This document shows, piece after piece, positions 3,879 to 64,000 of a DNA stretch of 64,000 nucleotides; within the stretch, counting starts at the first letter, position 1, and every line of letters begins with the position of its first letter. A program made the position numbers and the translations under genes. The notes under the pieces were generated by a model. That model did no database searches, had not been told where the DNA came from, and worked only from the letters and a program-made list of their open reading frames with translations. Origin of the DNA: Escherichia coli phage KS_S14; sequence record LC788706.1. One strand, written 5' to 3'.

Positions 3879-4109
3879 ATGAAACGAAAATTAAAAAAGT
3901 CTTATATAATTAAGATAAATAAGCTACGAAGTAGGGCAAAAGGATGGCCACTTCGAATATTAATTGCGGATAACCATACTAGATACCATGCGGAACAACG
4001 TCATTACAAACAGTGGGAGTCATACTGCCGCTCAAAAGCAGGTCGTTTAGATGGATCTTATGAGTTTCTATTTGGTAAGAAGCCTACTAGAGTAGCTTTA
4101 GGTAATTAG
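3879..4109 (+). CDS. small basic protein (76 aa)
   Basis: In-frame ATG inside ORF-track entry 3741..4109, whose upstream part is tRNA-like sequence; Lys/Arg-rich. Confidence 0.35.
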   Translation: MKRKLKKSYIIKINKLRSRAKGWPLRILIADNHTRYHAEQRHYKQWESYCRSKAGRLDGSYEFLFGKKPTRVALGN

Positions 4110-34977: not shown

Positions 34978-35164
34978 CTAATTCCCTCTCAATTTGCAGA
35001 ATACGAGTGCTATCACAACGTTGCAGTAGTACTAGCTTTTCTAGAATAACTTGTTGTTGTTTCACTTGGGCTTCTAGAGTTTTTAGGCGGAGATACACGA
35101 CACGAGAGACAATAAGGATTACCCAGACTAATATTACTATTAGTGTAACTGCCACTTCCATCAT
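34970..35164 (-). CDS. small membrane protein with coiled-coil tail
   Basis: 64 aa; start overlaps upstream stop. Confidence 0.35.
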   Translation of the reverse strand: MMEVAVTLIVILVWVILIVSRVVYLRLKTLEAQVKQQQVILEKLVLLQRCDSTRILQIERELDV

Positions 35165-35267
35165 TTACGTTTCTCCGACAGTAGGGTTTCAATTCTAGCT
35201 AAGTGATTATCTAAAATACATTGACCAATAATCACAACCCCCAGTAGTGCAATAATTACCCATTCCA
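35160..35267 (-). CDS. very small membrane protein (35 aa)
   Basis: ATG overlapping stop of upstream ORF; hydrophobic; hand-found. Confidence 0.25.
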
Positions 35268-35924: not shown

Positions 35925-37682
35925 ATGGGTTTTTTCGCTGGAAAGTATAGCGATGGTAAGACCGTACTATCTTTAAATACTGAATCTGGTGGTGACATTA
36001 ATCGTCACTATAGTCCAAGTAATAATAGTATTTTTCATAGTGATATGCCATTTGTTCTAGTTGATGGTACTTATGAGGCAGGATTAGGTGATGCCGGGAA
36101 TGGGTTTTTCGTATGTCAGATGCCTCCTGATATAGTAAATATTAAATCTAATGATCCTGGTAGAGTTATACTAACTGCTATTGAGATTAATGGTACTCAC
36201 AGAGCTTTTCTTAATGGTACTCAGAGTAAAGTTGGTCAAACTATAGTTGCCACTCAAGCAGACCCCTTTAGATCTTTTGCTAGTGTTTCTCAAACCAGTG
36301 GATTTGCATTTGGTAATAGTCTAGCATCTGGAACTTATAATTATAACCCATCGATAGGGCACGAAGAATCTATTTCTAGGAGTGGTACAGGTGGTACTAC
36401 GTTACATAGTACCTACCATGGGATAGTTAGGCCTGGTGCGGGAGCTCCTGTAGGTGTTACTGTTGCAGAAGCCTTTGCACAGTTAGGTTTTCCTACTAAT
36501 AGTAGCACAGTACCTGTAGATGGGAATAACCCGTATTATTGGGATCCTGGATGGATGTCGCCTCTAGGAGCAGCACATAGAGGGCATGATTGGTTTTATG
36601 TTTGCAACTCTAATATACGTGGATACGGTGGGGTTAGACAAGGGCTCCCAGGTAATGTAAATACTATGTACCACGACGGTGGGAACAGATTTGTTTGTAG
36701 GGGATCTACTACTAATTTAGCTAACCAGTCGGGTGACTCTACAATACTACAGGATTGGTATAATATAACCCCTACTAAGGTTATTTGGTATGTTCTTAAT
36801 TTAAGGTACTCTAATGGTGGAATGAGTATTTCAGGCAACCCCTTTACTGGTTCTGATATTCTTATATCTCCTTCTAATTTCATAATTAAAGGGGTAAGTC
36901 TCCCTAATACCGGGTATAAATTTATAAATCAGAATGCTTTTGGTAACCTAGGTTACCGTCCTGATATGGAGTATATAGGAAATAACGCAGCGTATACCGG
37001 GGTTTTTGGGGATACCACGGCAAGGTGTGAACTTGTAGGGTCTAGTAATGGAGGATTATGGTCTCCTGTAGACTATGGTGGAGCTAAATCCCAAATTAGC
37101 ATTTACAAATTCGGAGCTGGTAAGCAATGGTATGTAAACTCTAGGGATAATACTATCGGTAATGAACACGGGGTTGTTTGGGGACCATCAGCAGTTCCAT
37201 TACGACTTTTTGGTGGAAATGTAGGTAGCTCTTACATGGGGGATGATATTACTCCCAGCTACCCGGGAACAGGGGATAGATACGTTGGTTTATCAACTAT
37301 TGGGCTAGGTATACCGGGTGGCAATGCTACAGTAATTCTTACCACTGAAGTTATATCAGGTAACCTTAACTGTGCAGGTGTTCCTGCTAATACATGGAAT
37401 AACGGTGTGTTTCAAGTGCAAGGAAGAAGAGCATATAGCTATAGTAATGGAGATGCAATATTCCACCAGATTTTAACATTACCAGTAGGGTATTTAGTAC
37501 CTTTTCATACTACATCTGCTTTTAGATACACACCTAACAATGCCCTAAGTAGAAATAGTTTTATATACACTGCTAAAAATCTGGGGAATGGAAATGTAGA
37601 GTTAGGGGTAGTTATGCACGTAAGTTTAGGTAGTGCAGTTTTCCTACCGAGATTAAGAGTAACAGTTCAACGCCTTACCTAA
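35925..37682 (+). CDS. receptor-binding tail protein candidate (pb5/Oad-like)
   Basis: 585 aa; Gly/Asn/Ser-rich; adjacent to lipoprotein and terminal-repeat-like region; N-terminus MGFFAGK resembles recalled pb5 start. Confidence 0.45.
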
Positions 37683-37692
37683 AGGAGGAAAT

Positions 37693-38175
37693 ATGGCAAA
37701 TGATGTATTAGTACCAGATCTTATGTCCCCTGAAGGGATGGATGTAATTGAAGCATATTTACAGTGTGGCAGCGATGTGCCTTCTGCCGCACGTAGTCTT
37801 GGGATGTCCGAAATTGCTTTTCGAGATATTATGAATCGTAGTGAAGTTAAGAACTACTTAAATGATATTTTTATGGAGAGTGGTTTCCGTAACAGAGATC
37901 GTTTATTTGGTGTTCTGGATGAAGTTATCAAGCGTAAACTAGAGGAACTAGAAGAAACTGGCATGGGTTCTGACCAAGATATTATGGATATTCTCTGGAA
38001 AGCACATAAAATGAAAATGGAAGAAATGAAAATGATGGTAGAACTGGAGAAAGTGAAGGCAGCAGCCCGTACTCCAGCTAACCAGACCAACATCCAGAAT
38101 AATATTATTGCTGGAGCTGGGGATCAAAACTACATGGACTTAATTACTTCCCTAGCTACTGGAGGTAAGAAGTAA
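37693..38175 (+). CDS. terminase small subunit candidate
   Basis: 160 aa directly upstream of large terminase; HTH-like N-terminus. Confidence 0.5.
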
Positions 38176-39491
38176 TGGAAGTATCAAGACCTTACGTTAA
38201 TACAGTAGATGTTATTGATTTCGGAATAGATAAACGTTTCTTTCGTCTACCTGTTTCGGGAATACTAGCACAAGAAGGTATTACACCTAATGGTCCTCAA
38301 ATAGCGATTATTAATGCTCTAGAGGATCCTAGACATCGTTTTGTAACGGCGTGTGTATCACGCCGTGTAGGTAAATCCTTCATCGCATATACTCTTGGGT
38401 TCCTAAAATTGCTGGAACCTAATGTGAAGGTGTTAGTAGTTGCTCCTAACTATTCACTGGCCAACATCGGATGGTCTCAGATTCGTGGTCTTATTAAAAA
38501 ATATGGCCTACAAACTGAACGTGAGAACGCTAAAGATAAGGAAATTGAGTTAGCTAATGGTTCTCTGTTTAAACTAGCTTCCGCTGCTCAGGCTGACTCC
38601 GCAGTTGGACGTTCATATGATTTTATCATCTTTGACGAGGCGGCAATTTCCGATGTGGGTGGTGATGCCTTCAGGGTTCAGCTGCGTCCTACTCTAGATA
38701 AACCTAATTCTAAGGCTCTATTTATTTCCACACCTCGTGGAGGTAACTGGTTTAAAGAGTTTTACGCCTACGGATTTGATGATACGTTGCCTAACTGGGT
38801 ATCTATTCATGGTACATATCGTGATAACCCTCGTGCTGACCTGAATGATATAGAAGAAGCACGTCGTACGGTTAGTAAAAACTACTTCCGCCAGGAATAT
38901 GAAGCTGACTTCTCTGTATTTGAAGGTCAGATTTTTGATACTTTCAATGCTATTGACCATGTTAAAGACCTTAAGGGTATGCGTCATTTCTTTAAAGATG
39001 ATGAAGCATTCGAAACGTTGCTTGGTATCGACGTTGGTTATCGTGATCCTACAGCAGTTCTTACTATTAAGTATCATTACGATACGGATACTTACTATGT
39101 ATTAGAAGAGTATCAGCAGGCGGAGAAAACTACAGCTCAGCATGCTGCTTACATTCAGCACTGTATAGATCGTTATAAAGTTGATCGTATTTTTGTTGAC
39201 TCCGCGGCAGCTCAGTTCCGTCAAGACTTAGCTTATGAGCATGAAATTGCATCAGCTCCAGCTAAAAAATCTGTCCTAGATGGCCTAGCATGCCTGCAAG
39301 CACTGTTCCAACAGGGTAAGATTATTGTAGATGCCTCATGCTCCTCCTTAATTCATGCACTGCAGAACTATAAGTGGGACTTCCAAGAAGGTGAAGAGAA
39401 ATTATCACGTGAAAAACCACGTCATGATGCTAATTCTCACCTTTGTGATGCGCTGCGCTATGGAATTTACTCTATTTCCCGTGGTAAATAA
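38175..39491 (+). CDS. terminase large subunit
   Basis: 438 aa; Walker A-like RRVGKS, Walker B-like DFIIFDEAA, C-terminal nuclease-like region. Confidence 0.75.
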   Translation: MEVSRPYVNTVDVIDFGIDKRFFRLPVSGILAQEGITPNGPQIAIINALEDPRHRFVTACVSRRVGKSFIAYTLGFLKLLEPNVKVLVVAPNYSLANIGWSQIRGLIKKYGLQTERENAKDKEIELANGSLFKLASAAQADSAVGRSYDFIIFDEAAISDVGGDAFRVQLRPTLDKPNSKALFISTPRGGNWFKEFYAYGFDDTLPNWVSIHGTYRDNPRADLNDIEEARRTVSKNYFRQEYEADFSVFEGQIFDTFNAIDHVKDLKGMRHFFKDDEAFETLLGIDVGYRDPTAVLTIKYHYDTDTYYVLEEYQQAEKTTAQHAAYIQHCIDRYKVDRIFVDSAAAQFRQDLAYEHEIASAPAKKSVLDGLACLQALFQQGKIIVDASCSSLIHALQNYKWDFQEGEEKLSREKPRHDANSHLCDALRYGIYSISRGK

Positions 39492-49573: not shown

Positions 49574-52500
49574 ATGACTGATAAGCTAATACGAGAATTA
49601 CTAATAGACGTTAAACAGAAGGGGGCAACTCGTACTGCAAAGTCTATTGAAAACGTATCTGATGCGTTGGAAAATGCTGCTGCTGCTTCCGAACTGACAA
49701 ATGAGCAGTTAGGTAAAATGCCCAAAACTCTTTATTCCATTGAGAGGGCAGCAGACAGAGCAGCAAAAAGTCTTACTAAAATGCAAGCTAGTAGGGGTAT
49801 GGCTGGTATCACCAAATCTATTAATGATATTGGTGATAAACTAGATTACCTAGCTATCCAACTTATTGAAGTAACAGATAAACTAGAAATTGGATTCGAT
49901 GGAGTTTCTAGATCTGTTAAAACAATGGGCAATGATGTTGCAGCTGCAACAGAGAAAGTTCAAGATAGGTTATACGATACTAATAGAGTTTTAGGCGGTA
50001 CAACCAGAGGTTTTAATGATACTGCTGGTGCCGCTGGTAGAGCGTCTAGAGCCATTGGTAATACTTCTGGTTCAGCACGTGGTGCAACTCGTGATTTTGC
50101 AGCAATGGCTAAGATAGGTGGTAGTTTACCTATTATGTACGCAGCTCTTGCTTCCAACATCTTCGTTTTGCAATCAGCATTTGAACAACTTAAACTAGGT
50201 GATCAGCTAAATCGTTTAGAAAAATTTGGTGTTATAGTAGGTACTCAGACAGGTACTCCTGTTCAGACCCTTGCTAGATCACTACAAGAAGCTGCTGGAT
50301 ATGCTATTTCTTTTGAGGAAGCAATGAGACAGGCATCTTCAGCATCAGCTTATGGGTTTGATGCCGAACAACTTAATAAATTTGGTTTAGTAGCTCGTCG
50401 TGCGGCTGCTGTTCTTGGCGTTGATATGACTGATGCACTTAACCGTGTAATTAAGGGCGTATCTAAACAAGAAATCGAACTTCTGGATGAACTTGGTGTC
50501 ACCATTCGTCTTAATGACGCATACGCTGATTATGTTAAACAGTTAAATGCTGCAAACACAGGTATAACATATAATGTTAATAGTCTTACCACTTTCCAGA
50601 AGCAACAAGCATACGCTAATGCGGTAATTGCTGAATCTACTAAGCGTTTTGGCTACCTAGATGAAGTACTACGTGCAACTCCATGGGAGCAATTTGCTGC
50701 TAATGCAGATGCTGCACTAAGAAAAATACAACAAGCTGCTGCTAAGTATTTAGGGCCAGTAATTGATGCTATCAACACAGTATTTTATACATCTCAGGCT
50801 TCTATATCTGCTGAGGCAGCTAGGGCCCAAGAAAAAACTAATAGACAGATAGACCCTACCAACGTTGGTGCTGTTGCTTTAAGTTTAGCTGCATCTGAAG
50901 AAGGCTATAATAAAGCTCTAGATATGTATAAGGAATCTCTTGATAAGCGTAATAAGCTAAAATCTGAGTTCGATAAACGAATGGAACAAGCAGATTTCTA
51001 TACAAAACTAGCTATACGTCAAGTTGGTGAAGGTATTCCTATTGGTCTTGCAGCAGCAGGTGCCTCGGAGGCCAATAAGCAATTTGTAGCAGAAACTGCA
51101 GCTATGGGTCTACAAGTAACTAGACTTGGTAAGGAAGTAGAGGATTCTACAGAGAACCTCAATGCTTGGAAATCAGCGTATCAAGCTGCCGGGGCTGCTG
51201 CTGCAAAGGCTAGTCCAGAGTTTCAGAAGCAAATTAATCTACAGAGAGATACTACTGATCCTGGTGCTGTATATGATTTTAACTCTACTGTATTAAAAGG
51301 ACTAACTGAGCAGCAGAAAGCATACAATCAGACTAAGAAAACTGCTAGTGACTTAGCTAATGATATACAGAACGTTGCTCAGAATACAGATACTGCTGCT
51401 AAAACTAGTGCTACTTTAGCAGATGCTATAAAAAACATAGAATCTCTATCTCTAGGTACTGGTAAGAGTGCTGATGAATACGTTAAAAATCTTAACCTAG
51501 GCTATAATACTCTGTCTGAAATGAAAACTGCGTCTCAGGCCTTATCTGAGTACGTTAAACTAACTGGTAATGAGACTAAGAACCAGTTAGCAGTTCAACA
51601 GAAGATAGCTGACGTATACAACCAAACTAAAGATAAAGAAAAAGCACAGGAAGCTGGTAGGCGTTTAGAACTCCAACAGTTAGAAGAGCAAGAAGCTGCT
51701 TTACGCCGTGTACTTCAAACTAATCAGGGAAATAAAGCTGTTGAGAAAGAAATTGAAAAAATTCAGCTGGAGAAACTTAAACTTACTAATCAGGGTATGG
51801 AGGCTCAGAAGAAGGTTAAGGATTATACAGATAAAATCCTGGGTGTAGATCGTGAGATAGCTCTCTTAAATAACCGTACTATGACAGATACTCAGTATCG
51901 TCTAGCACAGTTAAATCTTGAATTGACCATTGAAAAGGAAAAGTACGAATGGTATACAAAACAAGCTGATAAACAGAAAGAGGCTGAACAGTCTAGACGT
52001 GCTCAAGCCCAAATTGAACGTGAAATCTGGAAATTCCGCCAAGATCAGATTGCTTCAATGGCTGCTGGTAGAGAGGAAGAACAGCAAAGACAATTTACTG
52101 CTAAACCACTAATGGGAAATGCGGAGCGCTTACAGGAACAGCTAAAATTATATGAAGACTTAAAGCAGAAAACATTAGGTAATGCTGCGGCACAAGCGGA
52201 GTATAATAAAAAGATAGCTGAAACTAGGGCACAACTAGCAGGTTTAAGGGCACAGAGAAATGCGGAGATGCAAGCTTCTGTTGGATCTTCTTTAGGTGCT
52301 GTGTATACTCCTACAACTGGACTATCTGGAGAAGATAAAGATTTTGCTGATATGGGAAATAGAATGGCTTCTTATGATCAGGCAATTTCTAAACTATCTG
52401 AGTTAAATTCCGAAGCAACTGCTGTAGCTCAAAGCATGGGTAATTTAACCAATGCTATGATTCAGTTCTCTATGGGGTCTTTAGACACTACTTCCACGAT

Positions 52501-53254
52501 CGCAGCAGGTATGCAGACTGTAGCCTCTATGATTCAATATAGTACTAGTCAACAGGTTAGTGCGATTGATCAGGCTATTGCAGCAGAGCAGAAACGAGAT
52601 GGTAAATCAGAAGCATCTAAAGCTAAGTTGAAGAAGTTGGAAGCTGAAAAGCTGAAGATTCAACAAGACGCAGCTAAGAAGCAGATTATCATCCAAACTG
52701 CAGTAGCTGTAATGCAGGCAGCCACCGCTGTTCCATATCCGTTCTCTATTCCACTAATGGTTGCGGCAGGTTTGGCGGGTGCCTTAGCTCTTGCTCAAGC
52801 ATCTTCTGCTTCTAGTATGTCAAGTATTGCTGATTCGGGAGCTGATACAACTAGTTACTTAACCTTAGGAGAGCGTCAGAAGAATATAGATGTGTCTATG
52901 TCTGCTAATGCAGGTGAACTATCTTATATTCGTGGAGATAAAGGCATAGGCGGTGCTAACTCTTTCGTTCCTCGCGCTGAGGGTGGTAATATGTACCCTG
53001 GGGTTAGCTATCAAATGGGTGAGCATGGTACAGAAGTAGTTACCCCTATGGTTCCTATGAAAGCTACACCTAATGATGAGCTAAAAACCTCATCTAACTC
53101 AACTTCAGGAAGACCTATCATCTTGAATATTAGTGCTATGGATGCTGCAAGTTTCAGAGAGTTTGCTTCTAGTAATAGTAGTGCTCTAAGAGACGCAGTA
53201 GAATTAGCTCTGAATGAGAACGGTGCTAGTTTGAAAACATTAGGAAATTCTTAA
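49574..53254 (+). CDS. tail tape measure protein (pb2-like)
   Basis: 1226 aa; Ala/Gln-rich coiled coil, C-terminal hydrophobic segment; size close to recalled T5 pb2. Confidence 0.75.
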   Translation: MTDKLIRELLIDVKQKGATRTAKSIENVSDALENAAAASELTNEQLGKMPKTLYSIERAADRAAKSLTKMQASRGMAGITKSINDIGDKLDYLAIQLIEVTDKLEIGFDGVSRSVKTMGNDVAAATEKVQDRLYDTNRVLGGTTRGFNDTAGAAGRASRAIGNTSGSARGATRDFAAMAKIGGSLPIMYAALASNIFVLQSAFEQLKLGDQLNRLEKFGVIVGTQTGTPVQTLARSLQEAAGYAISFEEAMRQASSASAYGFDAEQLNKFGLVARRAAAVLGVDMTDALNRVIKGVSKQEIELLDELGVTIRLNDAYADYVKQLNAANTGITYNVNSLTTFQKQQAYANAVIAESTKRFGYLDEVLRATPWEQFAANADAALRKIQQAAAKYLGPVIDAINTVFYTSQASISAEAARAQEKTNRQIDPTNVGAVALSLAASEEGYNKALDMYKESLDKRNKLKSEFDKRMEQADFYTKLAIRQVGEGIPIGLAAAGASEANKQFVAETAAMGLQVTRLGKEVEDSTENLNAWKSAYQAAGAAAAKASPEFQKQINLQRDTTDPGAVYDFNSTVLKGLTEQQKAYNQTKKTASDLANDIQNVAQNTDTAAKTSATLADAIKNIESLSLGTGKSADEYVKNLNLGYNTLSEMKTASQALSEYVKLTGNETKNQLAVQQKIADVYNQTKDKEKAQEAGRRLELQQLEEQEAALRRVLQTNQGNKAVEKEIEKIQLEKLKLTNQGMEAQKKVKDYTDKILGVDREIALLNNRTMTDTQYRLAQLNLELTIEKEKYEWYTKQADKQKEAEQSRRAQAQIEREIWKFRQDQIASMAAGREEEQQRQFTAKPLMGNAERLQEQLKLYEDLKQKTLGNAAAQAEYNKKIAETRAQLAGLRAQRNAEMQASVGSSLGAVYTPTTGLSGEDKDFADMGNRMASYDQAISKLSELNSEATAVAQSMGNLTNAMIQFSMGSLDTTSTIAAGMQTVASMIQYSTSQQVSAIDQAIAAEQKRDGKSEASKAKLKKLEAEKLKIQQDAAKKQIIIQTAVAVMQAATAVPYPFSIPLMVAAGLAGALALAQASSASSMSSIADSGADTTSYLTLGERQKNIDVSMSANAGELSYIRGDKGIGGANSFVPRAEGGNMYPGVSYQMGEHGTEVVTPMVPMKATPNDELKTSSNSTSGRPIILNISAMDAASFREFASSNSSALRDAVELALNENGASLKTLGNS

Positions 53255-53261
53255 AACTGGA

Positions 53262-53285
53262 GGAGGACTTTGAGTCCTCCTTTTC
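53262..53285 (+). terminator. rho-independent terminator after tape measure
   Basis: Stem ggaggac-tttga-gtcctcc followed by TTTT. Confidence 0.65.
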
Positions 53286-53286
53286 T

Positions 53287-53303
53287 TTATGGAAAAATAA
53301 AAA
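53287..53303 (+). promoter_or_regulatory. conserved late-region motif TTATGGAAAAATAAAAA
   Basis: Third copy, again directly after a terminator. Confidence 0.3.
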
Positions 53304-53307
53304 TTTC

Positions 53308-53336
53308 TTGATAAAATTTTCTAATACTATTATAAT
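53308..53336 (+). promoter_or_regulatory. sigma70-type promoter (TTGATA-17-TATAAT) inside late tail cluster
   Basis: Consensus hexamers, then GAGGAG RBS and ATG at 53364. Confidence 0.45.
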
Positions 53337-53363
53337 ATTGTTATTAAAGAGGAGAAATTAACT

Positions 53364-53978
53364 ATGAGATTACCAGACCCATACACGAATCCAGAACTTT
53401 CAGGCTTAGGATTCGAAAGTGTTAACCTGATTGATAATGACCCAGTAATTCGTGATGAGTTACCAAATGGTAAAGTTAACGAAGTTAAGGTATCTGCTCA
53501 ATACTGGGGTATAAATATTTCTTATCCAGAATTATTTCCAGATGAATATAGTGTTCTAGATGCATTTATTCTAGAATACAAAAGGACTGGTGGTTATATA
53601 GATGTTATATTACCACAATACGAAGCTTTTAGAGTTAGAGGTAATACTAGCCTAGTAAATATACCTGCTGGACAGAAGGGTTCTAATATAACTATGGATA
53701 CAAAAGGACTTCTCACAGGTATTCCAAAACCAGGGGATCTATTTAAGCTATCTAACCATCCAAAAGTATATAAAATAACATCATTCAATAAATCAGGCAA
53801 TACGTGGTCTATAAACTTATACCCTGATTTATTTATAACTACTACTGGGGCTGAGAAACCAGTGTTTAACGGAATACTATTTAGAACAAAACTCATGAAT
53901 GGTGATGCTTTCGGATCTACATTAAATAATAACGGAACATATTCCGGCATCTCATTAAATTTACGGGAAAGTTTATGA
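53364..53978 (+). CDS. distal tail protein (pb9-like)
   Basis: 204 aa immediately after tape measure; length matches recalled T5 pb9. Confidence 0.55.
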   Translation: MRLPDPYTNPELSGLGFESVNLIDNDPVIRDELPNGKVNEVKVSAQYWGINISYPELFPDEYSVLDAFILEYKRTGGYIDVILPQYEAFRVRGNTSLVNIPAGQKGSNITMDTKGLLTGIPKPGDLFKLSNHPKVYKITSFNKSGNTWSINLYPDLFITTTGAEKPVFNGILFRTKLMNGDAFGSTLNNNGTYSGISLNLRESL

Positions 53979-56824
53979 AGAAAATACTAGATAGTGCTAG
54001 AAACTACTTAAAAAATAATAGCAGAATAAAAACTGCTAGTCTAATTTCCCTAGAATTACCTGGCTCTACTGGTACTAGTACTGCTTTTATTTATTTAACT
54101 GATTATTTTAGAGATGTACTATATAATGGTATTTTGTACCAGGCCGGTAAGGTTAAGTCCATTAGCACACATAAACAAAATAGAGATTTATCTATTGGCA
54201 GTCTATCTTTTACTATTACGGGTACAGCGCAGGATGAAGTACTGAAATTAGTGCAGAATGGTGTGTCCTTTTTAGATAGAATAGTAACAATCCACCAAGC
54301 AATTATTACAGAGGATGGTTCTATTTTACCTGTAGACCCAGACACAAATGGCCCTTTATTATACTTTAGAGGGAGAATTACCGGTGGGGGTATTAAGGAC
54401 AACATTAGTACTTCTGGGGTTGGAACCTCCACAATTACTTGGAATTGTTCTAACCAATTCTATGACTTTGATAGGGTTAACGGTAGATTTACTGATGATG
54501 CTTCTCATAGAGGGCTTGAGGTTGTAGCAGGGCAATTAGTTCCATCTAACGGGGCTAAAAGACTTGAGTACCAAGAAGATTATGGGTTCTTTCATGCTAA
54601 TAAAAGTATCTCTATTTTAGCAAAATATCAGGTACAGGAAGAGAGATACAAGCTAAAGTCTAAGAAAAAGCTATTTGGCCTATCTAGAAGCTATAGTCTT
54701 AAAAAGTATTATGAGACTGTTACTAAAGAAGTAGATATAGATTTTAACCTTGCTGCTAAGTATATACCAGTAGTTTATGGTGTACAGAAAATACCAGGAA
54801 TACCTATTTTTGCGGATACGGAACTACACAATCCTAATATAGTTTATGTAGTATACGCCTTTGCTGAAGGGGAGATAGACGGTTTTCTTGACTTTTCCTT
54901 CGGGGATAACCCTATGATTTGTATGGACTCTAATGATAGCTCTGCTAGAACCTGTTTCGGTGTTAAAAAAGTAGCAGGAGACACCATGCAAAGAATAGCA
55001 TCAGGAATATCTTCTAGTAGTCCTTCTGTGCATGGTCAGGAATATAAGTATAATGATGGTAATGGTGATATAAGGATTTGGACTTATCATGGAAAAGCTG
55101 ATCAAACGGCTTCTGAAGTATTAGTAGACATAGCGAAAGAACGTGGGTTCTACCTTCAGAATATGAATGGCAATGGACCGGAGTACTGGGATGCTAGGTA
55201 TAAACTACTAGATACTGCATACGCAGTGGTGCGCTTCACTATTAATGAAAATAGGACTGAGATTCCTGAAGTTAGTGCTGAAATTCAAGGTAAAAAAGTA
55301 AAAGTCTATCATTCTGATGGTAGAGTAACTGCTAATAGTACTAGTTTAAATGGTATTTGGCAAACACTTGACTACTTAACCTCCGATAGATACGGTGCTA
55401 ATATTACCATTGATCAGTTCCCTCTTCAGCAATTAATACAGGAAGCAGCTATTTTAGATATTATAGATGAATCCTATCAGGTATCTTGGCAGCCATATTG
55501 GAGATACGTTGGGTGGACTGATCCACTAGCAGAAAATAGACAAATAGTACAAATGAATACTATTCTGGATACATCTGAATCAGTATTTAAAAATGTGCAA
55601 GGTTTATTAGAGTCCTACGGTGGGGCTATTAACAACTTATCTGGCCAGTACAGGATTACTGTAGAAAAATACTCTAATACTCCATTAGAGATTAATTTTC
55701 TAGATACTTACGGTGATTTGGAGCTATCAGATACTACTGGTAGAAATAAATTCAACTCAGTTCAAGCATCTATCGTAGATCCAGCCCTTAGCTGGAAAAC
55801 TAATTCCATTACATTCTATAACTCCAAGTATAAGGAACAGGACAAGAACCTAGACAAAAAATTACAATTATCTTTTGCAAATATAACTAACTACTATACT
55901 GCTAGAAGTTTTGCAGACAGAGAACTTAAGAAATCTAGGTATTCTAGAACCCTCTCATTTTCTTTACCATATCAATTCATTGGTATTGAGCCTAATGATG
56001 CTATTGCATTTACATACGACCGTTACGGATGGGATAAGAAGTACTTTTTAGTAGATGAAGTCGAAAACTCTAGGGAAGGAAAGATAAATGTTACTCTACA
56101 GGAGTATGGAAAAGATGTATTCATCAACTCTGATCAAGTAGATAATAGTGGTAATGATATACCAGATATTAGTAACAACGTTCTTCCTCCTAGAGATTTT
56201 AAGTATACTCCTACACCCGGTGGCTTAGTTGGTTCTATAGGTAAAAATGGTGAGTTATCCTGGCTTCCGAGTCTAACCAATAATGTAGTTTATTACTCTA
56301 TTGTGCACTCAGGCCATGCCGAACCTTACATAGTACAACAGTTAGAGACCAATCCTAACGAACGTATGATCCAAGAAATAATTGGGGAACCAGCAGGTCT
56401 GGCTATATTTGAGATAAGAGCAGTAGATATTAATGGTAGAAGAAGTTCCCCGGTGACTCTGTCTATAGAACTTAACTCTGCTAAAAACCTTAGTGTAGTA
56501 TCTAATTTTAGGGTAACTAATACTGCTTCTGGAGATGTAACTGAGTTTGTTGGCCCAGATGTAAAACTAGCTTGGGATAGAATACCTGAAGAAGATATAA
56601 TAGAGAGTATATTTTATACACTTGAAATACACGATTCGCAAAATAGGATGTTAAGAAGTGTACGTATTGAAAATCAGTATACTTATGACTATTTATTAAC
56701 ATATAATAAGGCAGACTTTGCTCTCCAGAACAGCGGTGCTCTAGGTATAAATAGAAAATTGTATTTTCGTATTAGGGCTGAAGGGGATGATGGAGAACAG
56801 TCTGTGGAGTGGGCATCCATTTAA
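53975..56824 (+). CDS. baseplate hub / tail tip protein (pb3-like)
   Basis: 949 aa; position after distal tail protein; length matches recalled T5 pb3. Confidence 0.6.
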   Translation: MKKILDSARNYLKNNSRIKTASLISLELPGSTGTSTAFIYLTDYFRDVLYNGILYQAGKVKSISTHKQNRDLSIGSLSFTITGTAQDEVLKLVQNGVSFLDRIVTIHQAIITEDGSILPVDPDTNGPLLYFRGRITGGGIKDNISTSGVGTSTITWNCSNQFYDFDRVNGRFTDDASHRGLEVVAGQLVPSNGAKRLEYQEDYGFFHANKSISILAKYQVQEERYKLKSKKKLFGLSRSYSLKKYYETVTKEVDIDFNLAAKYIPVVYGVQKIPGIPIFADTELHNPNIVYVVYAFAEGEIDGFLDFSFGDNPMICMDSNDSSARTCFGVKKVAGDTMQRIASGISSSSPSVHGQEYKYNDGNGDIRIWTYHGKADQTASEVLVDIAKERGFYLQNMNGNGPEYWDARYKLLDTAYAVVRFTINENRTEIPEVSAEIQGKKVKVYHSDGRVTANSTSLNGIWQTLDYLTSDRYGANITIDQFPLQQLIQEAAILDIIDESYQVSWQPYWRYVGWTDPLAENRQIVQMNTILDTSESVFKNVQGLLESYGGAINNLSGQYRITVEKYSNTPLEINFLDTYGDLELSDTTGRNKFNSVQASIVDPALSWKTNSITFYNSKYKEQDKNLDKKLQLSFANITNYYTARSFADRELKKSRYSRTLSFSLPYQFIGIEPNDAIAFTYDRYGWDKKYFLVDEVENSREGKINVTLQEYGKDVFINSDQVDNSGNDIPDISNNVLPPRDFKYTPTPGGLVGSIGKNGELSWLPSLTNNVVYYSIVHSGHAEPYIVQQLETNPNERMIQEIIGEPAGLAIFEIRAVDINGRRSSPVTLSIELNSAKNLSVVSNFRVTNTASGDVTEFVGPDVKLAWDRIPEEDIIESIFYTLEIHDSQNRMLRSVRIENQYTYDYLLTYNKADFALQNSGALGINRKLYFRIRAEGDDGEQSVEWASI

Positions 56825-58881
56825 TGATTTCAAATAATGCACCAGCCAAAATGGTCTTAAATAGTATAATGACTGGATATACTTTGGCTTATGTCCAGCA
56901 CTCCATTTATACTGATTATGATGTTATTGGTAGATCTTTTTGGTTAAAAATAGGAGAAAGTATAGATAGACGTGATTACACCGGTATAGATACTTTCTTC
57001 GTAATGATTAATAATTTAACCCCCTCTACCTCCTATGAGATTCAGGGGGCTTTCTATGACTCAATTATTGACTCAGAGTTACTAGAAGCTAAGATTGGTA
57101 TCAACCTCTCTAATGAAACTAACTTTAGAACAAAGGAAAAGCCAATAATTACTGCAGCAAGATCTGAATCAGAACCCGTTGACGTTGGTGTTGGTGCTCC
57201 AATAGTTGTTGTAGAGACTGCTGGTGAGGCTAGTTACTGCACTATTGAATTAAAAAGTACTGCATCAGAAGATAGTGAATGGGTTAAATATTACATAGGA
57301 GCACTGGGACCTACTATCAAATTTGGTGGTGTTCCTGTTGGCAACTATAAGATCAGAATATCTGGTCAAGTTACTATGCCAGATGGTGTTACAGTTGACT
57401 CATCTGGCTATTATGAATATCCTAGCGTTTTCACTGTAGCTTATAATTTCGTACCACCTACTGCACCTACTAACATTGACTTTAAAGCTGCACGAATCGC
57501 AGACGGTAAGGAACGATATGATGTTAGAATAGAGTGGGACTGGGAACGTGGTGCTGGTGCTAATGTCCGTGAATTTCTGGTTACTTATATAAACTCTGAA
57601 GAATATTCTAAGACTGGCTGGGCTAAAGCTCAAAAGATAAACGTTGGTGCTGCCAGAGCCGCAACGATTATATCATTCCCATGGAAAGTTGAGCATACTT
57701 TTAAGGTATCATCAATTGCCTGGGGACCAAATAAGCAAGATATAGCAGAATCAGCTCCTGTAACGTTTATACTTAATGAAGATACTCCTCTAGACAACAG
57801 CTTTGTCAATGAGACTGGTATTGATGTTAACTATGCCTTTATTAAGGGCAGCATGAAAGATGGAGAAATCTGGAGACAGACATTCTTAATCGACGCAGCT
57901 ACTGGTGCTATTAACATTGGTCTGCTAGATGAAGAAGGAAAAGCACCTATTTCTTTTGACCCTATAAACCGTGTTGTTAACGTTGATGGTAAAGTAATTA
58001 CTAGAGATATTAATGCTGCGAACTTTATCATGACTAACTTATCTGGTAAGGATAATCCAGCAATTTACACTCAAGGTAAATCTTGGGGTGATAATAACTC
58101 CGGTATTTGGATGGGTATGGATAATACTTCTGCCAAAGCTAAACTAGACATTGGTAACGCCACACAATGGATACGTTATGATGGTGATGTGCTACGTATT
58201 TCTAGTGGAGTAGTTATTGGAACTCCTAATGGCGATGTAGATCTGGGTACTGGTATGCAAGGTAAGCAAACAGTATTTGTTTATAAGTTAGCAACATCTC
58301 TACCTGCTAAACCACTAGAACAAGATTATCCGCCTCCTGGTTGGTCAAAAACTCCACCTAACCGTACAGATATGACACAAAATATCTATACCACTACAGG
58401 TACGCTTGATCCAGTTACTAATAGGTTATTAGAGGGTACTAGCTGGTCGGATGTAGTTCAGTGGAGTGGTACTGAAGGTACTATAGGGCATGATGGACAA
58501 CGTGGTCCTGGGATGTATTCTGTAGGTATAGCAGGTTTAGGTGGTTGGGATGATGGACAAGCTAATTCCTTCTTTCAAAGTAACTTCGGTTCTCCACCAG
58601 TTAAATACGATGTATTAACTGAATTTAATAGTAATGCCCCCCAATCAGCATTTACAAGGCAATGGAATGGGTCTGGTTGGGTTAACCCTGCAATGGTTCT
58701 CCATGGAAACATGATTGTTAATGGGACGGTGACGGCAGATAAAATTGTAGCAGGAAATGCTTTCTTATCTCAGATCGGTGTTAACATCATTTATGATAGG
58801 AATGCTGCATTATCGGGAAACCCTGAGGCATACTACAAGATGAAGATAGACCTAAATAGTGGGTATATCCATATAAGGTAA
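56809..58881 (+). CDS. central tail fibre / tail tip protein (pb4-like)
   Basis: 690 aa following baseplate hub. Confidence 0.55.
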   Translation: MGIHLMISNNAPAKMVLNSIMTGYTLAYVQHSIYTDYDVIGRSFWLKIGESIDRRDYTGIDTFFVMINNLTPSTSYEIQGAFYDSIIDSELLEAKIGINLSNETNFRTKEKPIITAARSESEPVDVGVGAPIVVVETAGEASYCTIELKSTASEDSEWVKYYIGALGPTIKFGGVPVGNYKIRISGQVTMPDGVTVDSSGYYEYPSVFTVAYNFVPPTAPTNIDFKAARIADGKERYDVRIEWDWERGAGANVREFLVTYINSEEYSKTGWAKAQKINVGAARAATIISFPWKVEHTFKVSSIAWGPNKQDIAESAPVTFILNEDTPLDNSFVNETGIDVNYAFIKGSMKDGEIWRQTFLIDAATGAINIGLLDEEGKAPISFDPINRVVNVDGKVITRDINAANFIMTNLSGKDNPAIYTQGKSWGDNNSGIWMGMDNTSAKAKLDIGNATQWIRYDGDVLRISSGVVIGTPNGDVDLGTGMQGKQTVFVYKLATSLPAKPLEQDYPPPGWSKTPPNRTDMTQNIYTTTGTLDPVTNRLLEGTSWSDVVQWSGTEGTIGHDGQRGPGMYSVGIAGLGGWDDGQANSFFQSNFGSPPVKYDVLTEFNSNAPQSAFTRQWNGSGWVNPAMVLHGNMIVNGTVTADKIVAGNAFLSQIGVNIIYDRNAALSGNPEAYYKMKIDLNSGYIHIR

Positions 58882-58887
58882 TAAATA

Positions 58888-59310
58888 ATGAGTACTGAAA
58901 ATAGAGTTATAGACTTAGTAATAGATGAAAAAGTACCTTATGGTCTAATGATGCAATTCTTAGATGTTGATGATAGTACTTATCCACCTACAAATACCCC
59001 TGTTAACTTAACAGGGTATTCCCTAAGGGGTACTATAAAGGCGGGGCTTGATGAGAACGCGGAAACTTTGGCATCTTTTACTACTAAAATTATTGATGCT
59101 GCTCAAGGTGCTATAGCTATAAGTTTACCTGTAGAGGCGGTAGATAATATTGGTGAAAAAGCTACCAAAGAGAGAGATAAGTATAACCCTCGCCAACGTT
59201 TTGCAGGATACTATGATATAATTATGACACGAGATGTCATAGGATCAGCTATTAGCTCTTTTCGTATAATGGAGGGTAAAGTATTTATCAGTGATGGGGT
59301 AACTAGATAA
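58888..59310 (+). CDS. collar protein candidate (p132-like)
   Basis: 140 aa between pb4-like and fibre genes. Confidence 0.4.
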
Positions 59311-60983
59311 TGGCAATAACTACTAAGATTATTGTACAACAAATATTAAATATTGATGATACTAAAGCTACTGCTAGTAAATTTCCTAGATACACAGTAA
59401 CTCTTGGAAATTCTATTAGCTCTATTACTGCTAATGAGTTAGTATCTTCTATAGAGGCTGCTGCTAAATCTGCTGCGGCTGCAAAAGATTCTGAAATAGC
59501 TGCTAAAACCTCAGAACTTAATGCTAAGAACTCTGAACAGAAAGCTGCTATTTCTGCTACTGAAGCAGGAAAACAAGCTACTAATGCTGCTAATAGTGCT
59601 AATACTGCTAAAACTGAAGCCGATCGTTCAAAAACTGAGGCTGATAGATCAGAAGCTGCTGCTAATTCTACCCCCGACATTCAACCTCTTCCAGATGTAT
59701 GGATACCGTTTAACGATTCTCTAGATATGATCACCGGCTTTGCGCCAGGCTATAAAAAAATAACAGTCGGTGATGAGGAAATAACACTGCCCAGTGACAA
59801 GATTGTTAGCTTTACACGTGCATCAACTGCGACATATATTAATAAATCAGGTGTATTAACTGTTGCGGGGATTGATGAACCTAGATTTGAAAAGGATGGT
59901 TTGCTCATTGAGGGGCAAAGAACTAACTATCATCTTAACTCACTTACGCCATCTAAGTGGGGAGCTACAACAAGTGTAACTATAACAGAAAGTGGTGTTG
60001 ATGAGTTTGGATTTACTTATGGGCGGTTTCAAATAAAGGACGAAAAAATTGGGACAAATACGGCAATGAATATCGCTGCGATTTCAGGAGGAAGAGGTGT
60101 CGATGTTACCGGAACTGAAAAGTATGTTACAACATCATGTCGTGTAAAAAGCGATAGTGCTAATATACAATGTCGTATAAGATTTGAAAGATATGACGGA
60201 TCCGCATATTTTTATCTAGCAGATGCATATCTTAATATAACAGATATGTCCATTAGAAAAACGGGAGTAGGGGCTGCAAGAATAACCGCCCGAGCGGAGA
60301 AAGAATCTAATGGATGGATTTATTTCGAGGTTACATATCAATCTGAAGCTATTGATAATATGGTTGGCTCTCAGATCCAAATTGCTCCACCTGTTTCACC
60401 TGGCACTTATTCTGGTGGAGAGTACTTACAGGTAGCTACCCCTCAAGTTGAAGGCGGGGCGTGCGCTTCATCGTTTATTATTACAGAAGCGACTCCAGTA
60501 ACACGGGCAAGCGATATGGTCACATTACCAATAAAAAACAACCTTTACAATTTGCCGTTTACAGTACTTGTGGAAGCTCATAAAAACTGGAGTATAACGC
60601 CAAATGCAGCGCCACGTGTTTTTGATACCAGCGGTCATCAAACCGGAGCGGCTATTATTCTTGCTTTCGGATCTGCCGAAGGCGATAATGATGGTTTCCC
60701 TTATTGCGATATAGGTAAATCAAACAGAAGGGTTTACGAGAATGCAAAACTAAAAAAGATGATCATGGGAATGAGAGTAAAGAGTGATTACAATACTTGC
60801 TGTGTAAGTAATGCCAGAATATCAAGCGAAACAAAAACGGAATGGAGATACATACAATCAACGGCTACTATAAGGATTGGAGGACAAACAACTACGGGCG
60901 GACGTCATCTTTTCGGGCACGTTAGAAACTTTAGAATCTGGCATAAGGAACTAACTGATAGACAAATGAAGGAGTATGTATGA
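59310..60983 (+). CDS. tail fibre protein with Ala-rich coiled-coil N-terminus and distinct C-terminal domain
   Basis: 557 aa; N-terminal AAAKSAAAAKDSEIAAK coiled coil; C-terminal half has different composition. Confidence 0.55.
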   Translation: MAITTKIIVQQILNIDDTKATASKFPRYTVTLGNSISSITANELVSSIEAAAKSAAAAKDSEIAAKTSELNAKNSEQKAAISATEAGKQATNAANSANTAKTEADRSKTEADRSEAAANSTPDIQPLPDVWIPFNDSLDMITGFAPGYKKITVGDEEITLPSDKIVSFTRASTATYINKSGVLTVAGIDEPRFEKDGLLIEGQRTNYHLNSLTPSKWGATTSVTITESGVDEFGFTYGRFQIKDEKIGTNTAMNIAAISGGRGVDVTGTEKYVTTSCRVKSDSANIQCRIRFERYDGSAYFYLADAYLNITDMSIRKTGVGAARITARAEKESNGWIYFEVTYQSEAIDNMVGSQIQIAPPVSPGTYSGGEYLQVATPQVEGGACASSFIITEATPVTRASDMVTLPIKNNLYNLPFTVLVEAHKNWSITPNAAPRVFDTSGHQTGAAIILAFGSAEGDNDGFPYCDIGKSNRRVYENAKLKKMIMGMRVKSDYNTCCVSNARISSETKTEWRYIQSTATIRIGGQTTTGGRHLFGHVRNFRIWHKELTDRQMKEYV

Positions 60984-61258
60984 GAGATATAATCCTAAAA
61001 TTCACGGATAAATCAGCATATAAAGATTTTCTCTTAAAAATAGAGTGGGATACTAATGAAAATTTGCAAAACCAAATAATGCTTGACGAAATTGGATATA
61101 CTTATACTGAAATCTCTCCGCTAGGTGATGAGGAACCTAGATGCATCCGTAATGAAGGGTATTATATTAATGTAAGGATTCTTGATGAATCCTTTACTTA
61201 CGAATCCTTCGAGCCTTTTATAGTTCAGCTAGAACAGCCTCTTAGAGTATGGGCATAA
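60980..61258 (+). CDS. hypothetical protein, possible fibre assembly factor
   Basis: 92 aa between two fibre genes. Confidence 0.4.
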   Translation: MRDIILKFTDKSAYKDFLLKIEWDTNENLQNQIMLDEIGYTYTEISPLGDEEPRCIRNEGYYINVRILDESFTYESFEPFIVQLEQPLRVWA

Positions 61259-61267
61259 GGTTTTATA

Positions 61268-63036
61268 ATGGTAACTAAAACAGTAATTCCTACGGATATT
61301 ACAAAACTTAAAAATGAGTCACTTAATAAAAATAATAACCTGAGTGACTTAGCAGACCGTGCAGCAGCATGGCTAAATGTGCGTCCTATTGGATCTACCC
61401 CTCTTGCTGGAGATCCTGTTAGTGACTATGATGCCGCAACTAAGCGTTGGGTGGAGAACAAACTTAATACTGGCACAGTAGGACCCACAATGAATGGTGT
61501 TATGAACTACGGGGTGGGGGATTTTCATCTTCGAGATAGCCGTGCGTATATTCAACCTTATGAGGTAGTTTCTGATGGGCAGCTTCTTAACAGGGCTGAC
61601 TGGCCTGAACTTTGGGCGTATGCACAAATGGTTGGAGCTATAGATGATTCAGTTTGGTTAGCAGATGTAGGACAACGTGGGAAATATTCTACGGGAGATG
61701 GTACCACTACTTTCCGCGTCCCAGATCGTAATGGTGTGCAACTAAATTCAATCAAAGGGTTATTCGCTCGTGGTGACGGTGGGGGGATGCTGGTCAAGCT
61801 GGTTCAATATCAGAAGCTGCAGCACCCAATATTACTGGTAGTTTTCCTGGCGCTATTGCTGGTGCATATGAAGAAGCGCTTAATAGATATTCATCTAGAT
61901 TTGGTCTTATTGGGGCGATTGGTGGTGAAAACGGCTTAGGTGCCGCTCCTGGAGGTGCATCTAAATCATTCGCCGTAGTTAATCCTGATAACCAATACGG
62001 ATTTAGTTTTGATGCAAACTTAGCGGACCCTGTTTATGGGCGTTATGGAATAAAAGGTACTATTATTCCAAACAGCTTTATAGGTGTCTGGGTAATCCGT
62101 GCTTCTGGTGGGTTCGTGGCTGCAAAGACTTCGTGGAGTGTTATTAGTGGTGATGCTGTCAAACCTAATACTGGTACTACTGTTTATGGCGGGAGTGTAC
62201 TATCTGAGTATAAAGTAGGTACTAGTAGTGAGGCTGTAAGTACACTACGAGCTAAAGCTACTATTGGTGGCACCTACTCTACTGAACTACTAATAGACAA
62301 TAAATCTACCGGTAAATCGAATTCCGCCCAGCTTGTAGATAATGGGGATTTTGTAACGGATCGTTTTAAAGCTAGATTAGTTACTGGCATGGCGTGGTCT
62401 CAGACTGGCTGGGTACAAGGTACTCTTTCTCAGAACGAGGTCAATATAGGTAGTACATTTAACTTTAATAGTATATTGAGCGGTTCCCAGTCTTCTTCCG
62501 CAGGGTATAAGACATCTGCACATTTTGGATTAATTCATAATGACTTAGGCTCATTTGCAGATTCTTGTTGGCAGGTAGCGGGAGATGATGATAATAAATT
62601 TGGTGTGCGTTTAAAAATTCAGCCGAATAATAATAGTATTTATTTTTATTCTTGGTGGCCAGGTGCTTCAGCAACCTATACTTTGCAATTAAATGCTGTA
62701 TCTGATTCTCGCTTAAAGCATGATATTAAGGCTATAGACGCAACTAAGTCCATCGAGGTATTAAAAGGATTAGAATTCCAATCCTTTGTATATAATAACG
62801 ATGAAAAATCTCGTGTCCGACGTGGGGTTATTGCTCAGCAAGTAGAGACTATAGAACCACTTTATGTAAAAACTAGAAAATTTTATAATGATGACGGAAT
62901 AGAGCAGGAGCAAAAGGAATTAGATACAACTCCAATGCTTCTTGACACTATGCATGTTGTGCAAGATCTTATTAAACGGATTGAAGATCTAGAGAAAGAG
63001 CTTGAGCAATTAAAGGTACAATTAGTATCACAATAA
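61268..63036 (+). CDS. L-shaped tail fibre-like protein with C-terminal intramolecular-chaperone domain; interrupted by frameshift at G6 run 61781-61786
   Basis: Frame 2 ORF 61268..61939 and frame 1 ORF opening after TGA at 61774 join at GGGGGG; C-terminus SDSRLKHDIKAID...GVIAQQVE...LEKELEQLK resembles self-cleaving chaperone domain. Confidence 0.5.
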
Positions 63037-63037
63037 A

Positions 63038-63078
63038 AGAAAACCCCAGTGGACAAAATCCACTGGGGTTTATTATTT
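63038..63078. terminator. bidirectional rho-independent terminator between convergent genes
   Basis: Stem ccccagtgga...tccactgggg flanked by A-run upstream and T-run downstream. Confidence 0.7.
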
Positions 63079-63092
63079 ATTTTATATGTAGA

Positions 63093-63539
63093 TTACTTAC
63101 TTCCTGAACTTCCAAATCCTCCTTCTCCACGTACAGTCTCTTCTAACTCATCAACGATTTCAAAATTATGAGTTGAGTAATGTGGCAATACCACTAGCTG
63201 ACAAAGTCTCTCGAAATTCTCCAGAGTTTGCATTTCAGAACCGTAATTATAGAGGTTCATCTTAATAGTACCACGATAGTCTGAGTCGATCACCCCTGCG
63301 GTGTTTGCAATCATCAAATAGCGCTTACCTAAAGAGCTACGAGGAACCACCAAACCGAACCAACCTCGCGGAATTTCTACCGCGACACCGGTGTCAATCA
63401 TTAGGGATTTGCCTGGCGCAATAGCACGTAAATCTGCGGCAGGGTTTGTACCAAAGAATGCTCGCAGATCCATACCTGCGGCATCTTCGGAACCAATCTT
63501 AGGCATACAATCTGGATTAGTTAATTTAATTTTAATCAT
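63093..63539 (-). CDS. dut: dUTPase
   Basis: 148 aa; motifs AAGMDL, RSSLG, GVIDSDYRG and C-terminal RGEGGFGSSG. Confidence 0.85.
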   Translation of the reverse strand: MIKIKLTNPDCMPKIGSEDAAGMDLRAFFGTNPAADLRAIAPGKSLMIDTGVAVEIPRGWFGLVVPRSSLGKRYLMIANTAGVIDSDYRGTIKMNLYNYGSEMQTLENFERLCQLVVLPHYSTHNFEIVDELEETVRGEGGFGSSGSK

Positions 63540-64000
63540 TGTTCTGCAATCTCCAAAATATCTTTTGTAAACTTATCTAATACATCTTGACCTACAGCAG
63601 CAATAGCGTCCACACAGTAGGTAGGTAAATCAACTAAAATTAGGTTTCGATAAAGCAATTCTTCCGAAGCATTTAAATTCTGTATATATTTCTGTTTTCC
63701 AGGTAGTGGAAGCTGATCAATAATATCCAGAACGTTACCAAATTCACGAATAATATTATACCCGCGTTTTGCCCCAATACCTTCAACACCACGGATATTA
63801 TCCCCTAAATCACCCATAATTGCTTTCAGAGAGATAAACTGCTCTACATCGTCAACATTATGGTGCTCATACATATCACGAAGATGATATTCACGACGTG
63901 TTGTAAAAGAGAAGCGAGAAACTTTATCAGTTAATAAAGTATCCCAGTCACCATCGGTAGAAATTAGCCAAACATGATCATATAGATGCCCAATCAGCTT
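63536..64000 (-). CDS. 5'-3' flap endonuclease (D15-like), 3' portion; gene continues beyond window
   Basis: C-terminal H3TH-like region LGDNIRGVEGIGAKRG; open frame continues to window edge. Confidence 0.65.
   Translation of the reverse strand, partial: KLIGHLYDHVWLISTDGDWDTLLTDKVSRFSFTTRREYHLRDMYEHHNVDDVEQFISLKAIMGDLGDNIRGVEGIGAKRGYNIIREFGNVLDIIDQLPLPGKQKYIQNLNASEELLYRNLILVDLPTYCVDAIAAVGQDVLDKFTKDILEIAEQ

Follow-up and report, generated by a model that had tools for sequence, protein, structure and literature searches.

Why is the distal tail-fibre gene of Escherichia coli phage KS_S14 read in two frames? The gene occupies positions 61268–63036, plus strand, of the 64,000-nucleotide (nt) stretch analysed here (the window), which belongs to the 109,808-nt record LC788706.1, and it is interrupted at a run of six guanines (G6). 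The preliminary description of this DNA, made from its letters alone, left three explanations side by side: a G lost in assembly from a true run of seven (G7), a pseudogene, or ribosomal slippage yielding two fibre isoforms. The evidence presented below favours a genuine fibre-OFF allele of KS_S14, derived from G7 by slippage, and we put the probability of this reading, its adaptive variant included, at about 0.6. Taken plainly, as a slippage null with any adaptive switch left aside, the same reading stands slightly short of even odds.

One fibre gene in two frames

The features of the split gene are listed below; the coordinates of the chaperone domain were calculated from residue numbers, and aa denotes amino acids.

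61268–61939, plus strand: upstream half of the split fibre gene, BEU75852.1, KSS14E_0930, annotated as 'hypothetical protein', 223 aa
61774–61776, plus strand: frame-1 TGA closing the downstream frame just 5' of the tract
61781–61786, plus strand: poly-G tract, G6 here and G7 when intact, the site of the one-base length change
61783–63036, plus strand: frame-1 continuation, residues 173–589 of the intact fibre, 100% identical to vB_Eco_mar004NP2 over 417 aa
62116–63036, plus strand: downstream open reading frame (ORF) as annotated, BEU75853.1, KSS14E_0940, 'hypothetical protein', 306 aa, GTG start
62701–62859, plus strand: Peptidase_S74 (PF13884) intramolecular chaperone, residues 479–531, E = 3.4e-12, 46.9 bits (cut-off 22)

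The upstream half opens in frame 2 with the ATG at 61268, preceded by AAGG at 61257–61260, and encodes 173 native residues (61268–61786) followed by 50 out-of-frame residues and a stop at 61937–61939 (61787–61939 in all). In frame 1, no stop follows the TGA at 61774–61776 until 63034–63036. The coordinates given in the preliminary description for the frame-2 ORF, the TGA, the G6 run and the open frame beyond it were all found to be correct. The zero-frame codons over the run read GGT GGG GGG ATG in KS_S14, and one added G turns them into GGT GGG GGG GAT GCT (Gly-Gly-Gly-Asp), joining both frames. The need for a -1 shift at G6, with G7 as the intact state, was thus rightly recognised, as the insertion of a single G restores exactly the 589-aa protein of vB_Eco_mar004NP2 (Tequintavirus, hereafter mar004NP2). 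The tract lies inside codons 171–173 of the 589-codon gene, where changes of its length shift the frame. Past the TGA at 61774, frame 1 offers no ATG, GTG or TTG before the GTG at 62116, hence no near-full-length product can arise by re-initiation.

Over the fibre region KS_S14 and mar004NP2 are 100% identical, with 2102 bases in the mar004NP2 record against 2101 in KS_S14; relative to the 1770-nt mar004NP2 coding sequence (CDS) there are no substitutions and one G is missing. Residues 1–173 (frame 2) and 173–589 (frame 1) are each 100% identical to parts of one 589-aa mar004NP2 protein, so the split is a real interruption of a known gene and not a pair of chance ORFs. KSS14E_0940 is a fibre fragment rather than a separate gene, and the two loci KSS14E_0930 and KSS14E_0940 should be annotated as halves of one lateral tail-fibre gene. 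The gene is a single CDS of 1770–1773 nt, named 'tail fiber protein', in mar004NP2, PMBT29, SPLA5b and JLBYU40, and the relatives overall annotate one continuous CDS of 1698–1773 nt. The absence of substitutions against the intact gene indicates that the event is very recent. The window as a whole is not a deposited record with one altered base, a possibility that we rejected on finding 96.2% identity to mar004NP2 over 39001–64000 and no copy of it in the phage collection searched; exact look-up of its proteins showed it to be KS_S14.

The restored protein aligns over nearly its whole length to residues 526–1072 of 8hqz_d ('L-shaped tail fiber assembly', E = 6e-135), its C-terminus also matches 6f45_A, and it matches PHROG tail-fibre families. 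Together with the Peptidase_S74 domain, which bears out the earlier assignment as a tail-fibre gene with a C-terminal chaperone, these matches identify the product of 61268–63036 as the distal subunit of the lateral (L-shaped) tail fibre of a T5-like Tequintavirus. This subunit presumably bears the variable distal, putatively receptor-binding region, and its C-terminal self-cleaving chaperone is needed for trimer folding. The 223-aa product, which ends long before these parts, is likely to be non-functional, and KS_S14 as sequenced probably lacks the distal fibre branch.

The near-perfect identity bears on the idea of a pseudogene. Long-standing decay of the fibre in this lineage would fit an interrupted gene whose lateral fibres are dispensable on some hosts, but it is refuted by the absence of any substitution or further indel over 1770 nt and by the complete identity of both halves as protein; the start region, terminator and partner genes are intact as well. 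Such an old pseudogene is hardly credible, and what is left of the proposal is a very recent null allele.

The same comparison bears on a sequencing or assembly artefact, in which a true G7 would have lost one G in the consensus at the longest G run of the region. A single base missing from a homopolymer in an otherwise identical gene is the classic signature of a homopolymer miscall. Mechanical ORFs (80 aa or longer) of the syntenic region in mar004NP2 were translated and searched against the window: this fibre gene was the only one of 119 reference ORFs to be frame-split. Homopolymers of 6 nt or more number 65 in the window (46 A6, 4 A7, 10 T6, 1 T7, 2 C6 and 2 G6), five of them runs of seven, and none of the others breaks any of the 119 ORFs tested. 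An assembly with widespread homopolymer errors would not be expected to show such a lone split. Furthermore, positions 52280–64000 show only two length differences from mar004NP2, the missing G and a 717-nt block in the upstream fibre gene.

Tract length among relatives

Tract length was found to vary between public assemblies, in which G6, G7, G8, G10 and G13 were seen:

G7 (intact), named phages: mar004NP2, PMBT29 and phC17
G7 (intact), contigs: IMG/VR 3300045988_054024, human-gut OXIW01000060, and ENA metagenome scaffolds in ERZ28600177 and ERZ28662105
G7 (intact), Logan assemblies: ERR5898689 and SRR8960770
G10 (in frame, one additional Gly): SPLA5b
G13: OR896837, a noisy record
G6 (out of frame): KS_S14 and Logan SRR31518524, ERR11474195 and SRR13300666
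G8 (out of frame in the opposite direction): Logan SRR23801862 (87-kilobase (kb) contig) and ENA ERZ19211393 (108-kb SPAdes contig)

The G6 carriers differ genetically and hence are not copies of one genome, as the state occurs on four backgrounds. Five mismatches and a 21-nt indel separate SRR31518524 (L045) from KS_S14, ERR11474195 (L046) matches mar004NP2 without mismatches and shares its long upstream gene, and SRR13300666 (L051) carries a 91%-identical allele. The two G8 states stand on a 99.9%-identical and a 96%-identical allele, and the 421-aa product of the ERZ19211393 allele is carried on four contigs. The SRR8960770 protein variant (P0149) is present on at least 24 contigs. All 14 deposited records compared differ from KS_S14 at the tract by +1, +4 or +7 nt. 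Off-frame contigs number about 11 against about 40–55 with an intact pure-run gene, i.e., roughly one in six, counts in which not all contigs are independent.

The off-frame copies were obtained solely through exact-protein look-up in Logan and ENA assemblies. A scan of IMG/VR, metagenome and genome collections for the flanks of the tract with a variable gap returned only G7 copies and one chance match (L010). The exact products expected from G4, G5, G8, G9 and G11–G14 on the mar004NP2 background were absent from a collection of 15 billion proteins; the G8 product is missing because the ORF that gene callers report in its place is the downstream one of 421 aa. Since the predicted products of longer and shorter tracts are missing, the off-frame states seen lie one step (±1) from G7.

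In the G13 record, OR896837.1 (L004, which also bears the name vB_Eco_mar004NP2), the fibre gene is annotated as three pieces; apart from G13, the gene contains a 3-nt deletion and two 1-nt indels but no substitutions, and the record looks like an indel-prone assembly. In view of these other 1-nt indels, G13 was discounted as evidence of a long expansion.

The variation is confined to this tract. Ten mar004NP2-type alleles have eight substitution sites in 1770 nt and four tract states; the tract, taken as one site, underwent at least three length changes, several hundred times the 0.0045 substitution events per site. Among the 21 homopolymers of at least 5 nt in 59600–64000, followed through 15 aligned loci, only this tract varies repeatedly. 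It differs from KS_S14 in 11 of the 15 loci, and elsewhere two events were found, one in the noisy record and one A7-to-A8 change. The states G6, G8 and G10 thus recur at this tract only. In JLBYU40, Lindwurm, WP85 and PH204 the same three glycines are encoded by an interrupted run, GGGGGAG, and none of these four alleles is a length variant. Dependence of the variation on an uninterrupted run is a prediction of slipped-strand mispairing.

The run itself is neither ancient nor unusual. Thirty more distant IMG/VR homologues keep the RGDGG motif with mixed Gly codons and no run, and their length varies just after the motif, so the long run is peculiar to this allele lineage and its surroundings accept indels, which is also why G10 is tolerated. 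The candidate of an anciently conserved tract was rejected on the mixed codons of these homologues. Four G6 or C6 runs are present in the window against 10.75 ± 3.56 in shuffles, so such runs do not exceed chance; what does exceed it is the length polymorphism of this single run among near-identical sequences.

The A7-to-A8 change concerns the proximal fibre gene. The A7 at 59754–59760 is A8 in ERR5898689 (L049, 476–483), where the gene is split into 164 and 414 aa. The contig keeps its distal fibre intact (G7), and the change is a second homopolymer break in the locus.

Origin and persistence of the six-guanine allele

The observations above are consistent with the following course of events. 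The G7 run of the intact gene, which spans three glycine codons and the next codon, would be a site at which the polymerase slips during DNA replication, and KS_S14 would carry the G6 product. A ribosome translating this allele would leave the native frame after residue 173, add 50 wrong residues and stop, so that the distal domains and the chaperone would not be made and the fibre branch would be off. On hosts that lack a protective O-antigen the fibre is dispensable, and propagation could let OFF variants survive or enrich them; the gene would be restored by a slip in the reverse direction. That the change lies in the phage DNA rather than in the consensus, and that it arose by replication slippage, is what we infer from the tract comparison, and relaxed or positive selection on the propagation host may explain the presence of the OFF allele.

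Data on other T5-like phages indicate that such an allele can be tolerated. An ltfB nonsense mutant engineered in DT571/2 had no visible lateral fibres left and grew normally on laboratory strains, but its growth was lost or reduced on O-antigen-producing hosts, with an efficiency of plating of 1e-5 on one of them, due to revertants (PMC4728585). Prolonged cultivation on E. coli C600 selected a deletion of the fibre locus (PMC4728585). The lateral fibres of DT57C are essential on O-antigen strains and not on rough strains (PMC10713586).

The sister phage NG_A1 (LC788705.1), which comes from the same submission batch as KS_S14 (sewage, Shinjuku, adjacent accession numbers), presents a related picture. 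In NG_A1 the homologous distal fibre gene (37511–39240) breaks at a T-run of five (GGTTTTTCACC), which would need one further base to keep the frame of intact homologues. A change from (AG)4 to (AG)5 splits the NG_A1 LtfC gene (34748–35172), and the matching (AG)4 is found within the KS_S14 LtfC gene (58888–59310). A third, early gene (about 3041–4055) is split at a (TA)n dinucleotide repeat. Three of the 57 genes tested in 50 kb are thus split, two of them in the lateral-fibre module, which makes up about 4% of the NG_A1 stretch; by our estimate two of three hits would fall there by chance in about 0.6% of cases. A search of the literature on KS_S14 or NG_A1 returned nothing relevant. A frameshift in the LtfC homologue of the T5 reference genome (gp135/136) was taken for a sequencing error (PMC10713586, Table 1 footnote). 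For the fibres of the T5-like Salmonella phage 37, point mutations and short changes that keep the frame are reported, and neither frameshifts nor homopolymers are mentioned (PMC12541327).

NG_A1 can be read in two ways. Three split genes in 50 kb from the same submitters would speak for a consensus error in the KS_S14 record as well, as does the existence of a noisy record with indels in this gene (OR896837). However, two of the three NG_A1 breaks are changes of whole dinucleotide units that resemble replication slippage, and two of three lie in lateral-fibre genes. These breaks look less like random base-calling error than like a genuine loss of lateral fibres by slippage at repeats, be it tolerated or selected. 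The recurrence of G6 in three further runs on different backgrounds and of G8 in two, 87-kb and 108-kb contigs included, likewise speaks against a miscall. The suggestion that a G was lost in assembly was right about G7 as the intact state, and it is weakened by the lack of any other split gene in 64 kb and by G6 and G8 in independent assemblies. A base-calling error in KS_S14 is unlikely on this evidence, while keeping real weight; even if it occurred, the polymorphism between assemblies would stand.

That error is the chief point to be set against slippage in the phage itself, and a few others belong beside it. Variation of the tract is known from comparison between assemblies only; reversibility and the OFF phenotype are predictions for KS_S14; the evidence for dispensability comes from DT57C and DT571/2, phages other than KS_S14; some of the G8 contigs may be the same phage sampled repeatedly; and the G13 count in OR896837 is unreliable owing to its other single-base indels.

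Slippage could alternatively occur during expression, as the preliminary description proposed for the ribosome: the ribosome or RNA polymerase would slip on the G run, and a G6 genome would make both the 223-aa product and the full-length fibre as designed isoforms. A -1 slip of the P-site tRNA-Gly from GGG 61784–61786 to GGG 61783–61785 re-pairs perfectly and yields the exact wild-type 589-aa protein; the junction peptide expected from -1 decoding of the G6 gene is GDGGGDAGQAGSISEAAAPNITGSFPGAIAGAYEEALNR. Some leaky full-length expression from G6 is therefore conceivable on sequence grounds. There is a parallel in herpes simplex virus thymidine kinase, a conditionally dispensable gene in which ±1 null mutations arise mainly at a run of about seven G. 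When this run is altered, mutants still make low levels of the enzyme through ribosomal frameshifting, and such leakiness and reversion each restore some function. The case is a mechanistic analogue only, with a eukaryotic virus, drug selection and another polymerase. As a programmed event, recoding fares poorly in KS_S14. No in-phase X_XXY_YYZ heptamer occurs anywhere in 61268–61939, and the downstream 74–154 nt are no more structured than shuffles (z = +0.41 for 61787–61860, +0.67 for 61790–61890 and +0.20 for 61787–61940). The two-frame layout is not conserved, since in the nearest relatives G7 or G10 leaves a single uninterrupted ORF, and the 50-aa out-of-frame tail shows no conservation of its own. 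G8, which shifts the frame the other way, exists too, and no single recoding design explains both. Programmed production of two isoforms is accordingly very improbable.

Slippage-prone homopolymers in phages are already established, and the present example in a T5-like lateral fibre is new; our literature search found no report of a slippage-prone tract in lateral-fibre genes of T5-like phages. In Campylobacter phages of the genus Fletchervirus, as summarised from Sorensen et al. 2021 (Cell Rep 35:109214, cited in PMC12633550), receptor-binding genes contain poly-G tracts of 7–11. According to that summary, there as here a G run lies in a receptor-binding or tail-fibre gene and slippage shifts the frame, which in Fletchervirus produces subpopulations with and without the protein; the G7 of the KS_S14 gene corresponds to the lower end of the 7–11 range. 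Fletchervirus is described as having several tracts per genome, genus-wide, with stock heterogeneity and an effect on host range measured, whereas the T5-like tract is single, belongs to one allele lineage and has variation known between assemblies only. In T2 and T4, coding homopolymers of at least 6 nt act as contingency loci, with ±1 slippage at about 1e-4 to 1e-3 per read, and reversible null alleles are selected when the gene is costly, the examples being A runs in the defence-evasion genes agt and rIIA (Gomez, Barrick and Waters, bioRxiv 2025, PMC12633550). The present run is of G and lies in a fibre gene, and rates of slippage and reversion have been measured for T2/T4 only. The same study tabulates homopolymers of 6 nt or more in the BASEL phages and reports no T5-like fibre genes.

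These precedents raise the question of whether the tract is kept by selection as a reversible ON/OFF switch of the distal fibre, a variant nested within the slippage reading. Both OFF directions (G6 and G8) and an in-frame expansion (G10) exist in nature, with about one in six pure-run contigs OFF. The pure G7 is found on alleles that are 3–9% divergent at the nucleotide level (L053, L050, L051, L012 and L009), GGG is a minority Gly codon in the fibre gene and its neighbours, and both the Fletchervirus tracts and the T2/T4 loci offer models. On the other side, the run is confined to one lineage, absent in the thirty distant homologues and interrupted in four close alleles; one synonymous A-to-G change makes it, and G6 runs are not above chance in the window. 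About 200 nt around the site are 93–99.5% identical even between divergent alleles, so recent recombination, rather than long maintenance, may account for the shared G7. Even without selection for switching, a conditionally dispensable gene is expected to yield homopolymer nulls, and such repeats are under-represented in tail fibres (PMC12633550). The lineage restriction and the single synonymous change favour the weakest point of a conditionally dispensable gene over an evolved switch, which we regard as doubtful, less probable even than a consensus error.

If the switch were nevertheless real, frequent slips between G7 and G6 or G8 would place fibre-positive and fibre-negative particles in every lysate. 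This would be a heritable, reversible bet-hedge, as O-antigen hosts need the fibre, and on rough hosts or O-antigen debris it would be useless, costly or trapping. Together with the breaks in partner genes (A7, (AG)n in LtfC and the T run of NG_A1), it would mean that the whole lateral-fibre module is wired for rapid reversible loss. Slippage of a G7 run, whether selected or not, would turn a host-range determinant off, and possibly back on, in about one in six public assemblies. T5-like phages are used in biocontrol and as model phages; a stock of such a phage may be mixed, and its host range may shift with the strain on which it is propagated. For KS_S14 itself, a missing fibre branch bears on host-range or therapeutic use. 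With an E. coli host, an ltfB-null phenotype and natural interrupted-run controls, the locus offers a simple system for asking whether phage homopolymers are adaptive switches or weak points.

The lateral-fibre locus

The genes and signals around the split gene are as follows.

58888–59310, plus strand: LtfC-like collar protein, the lateral-fibre anchor (PF23926, E = 8.4e-15)
59310–60983, plus strand: proximal lateral-fibre subunit (LtfA-like), 557 aa, residues 1–121 matching 8hqz_d 1–121
60980–61258, plus strand: conserved 92-aa protein of unknown function, phrog_1361, between the two fibre genes
63041–63071, either strand: strong bidirectional intrinsic terminator separating the fibre gene from the convergent dUTPase gene

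The order pb4, LtfC, LtfC-docking proximal fibre, distal fibre and convergent dut is that of the T5-like branched lateral-fibre locus. As the fibre gene ends its transcription unit, a premature stop would affect no further gene and carries no polar cost.

The locus resembles those of DT57C and DT571/2 in its LtfC collar, the proximal subunit docking on LtfC, and a second fibre gene ending in S74 beside dut (PMC4728585; PMC10713586). It differs in the 92-aa gene between the fibre genes, in the much shorter proximal subunit (557 aa), and in that the best similarity of the distal subunit is to the distal half of the 1076-aa 8hqz_d (in DT571/2 the best match is annotated ltfA) and not to LtfB uniquely. 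The paper that describes mar004NP2 treats its copy as the orthologue of ltfB from DT57C and DT571/2 (PMC6563131). The N-terminal module of the fibre matches DT571/2 at two places, the better of which is annotated ltfA, the module being common to both genes; for this reason we describe the product as a distal lateral-fibre subunit and do not insist on strict ltfB orthology. The distal subunit would be attached to the proximal one.

The 92-aa phrog_1361 ORF overlaps the proximal-fibre stop by 4 nt and is kept between the fibre genes in every relative examined. Its product could be a fibre assembly or adaptor factor.

The distal gene is modular. Its first approximately 290 residues, which include the tract, are 85–99% identical across many T5-like, rV5-like and other coliphage fibres (61268–62150); the next approximately 190 residues are allele-specific (62150–62700), and the S74 chaperone is shared again.

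The proximal fibre gene also varies in length, encoding 557 aa here and 796 aa in mar004NP2 (L001, 594–2984). The 717-nt difference is in frame, with a breakpoint near 59544–59558, and falls in an Ala/Ser/Glu-rich region made of 21-nt (7-aa) tandem repeats. Proximal products of 511, 790 and 796 aa in the relatives, along with the 21-nt indel in SRR31518524, suggest that the length of the shaft varies by repeat recombination.

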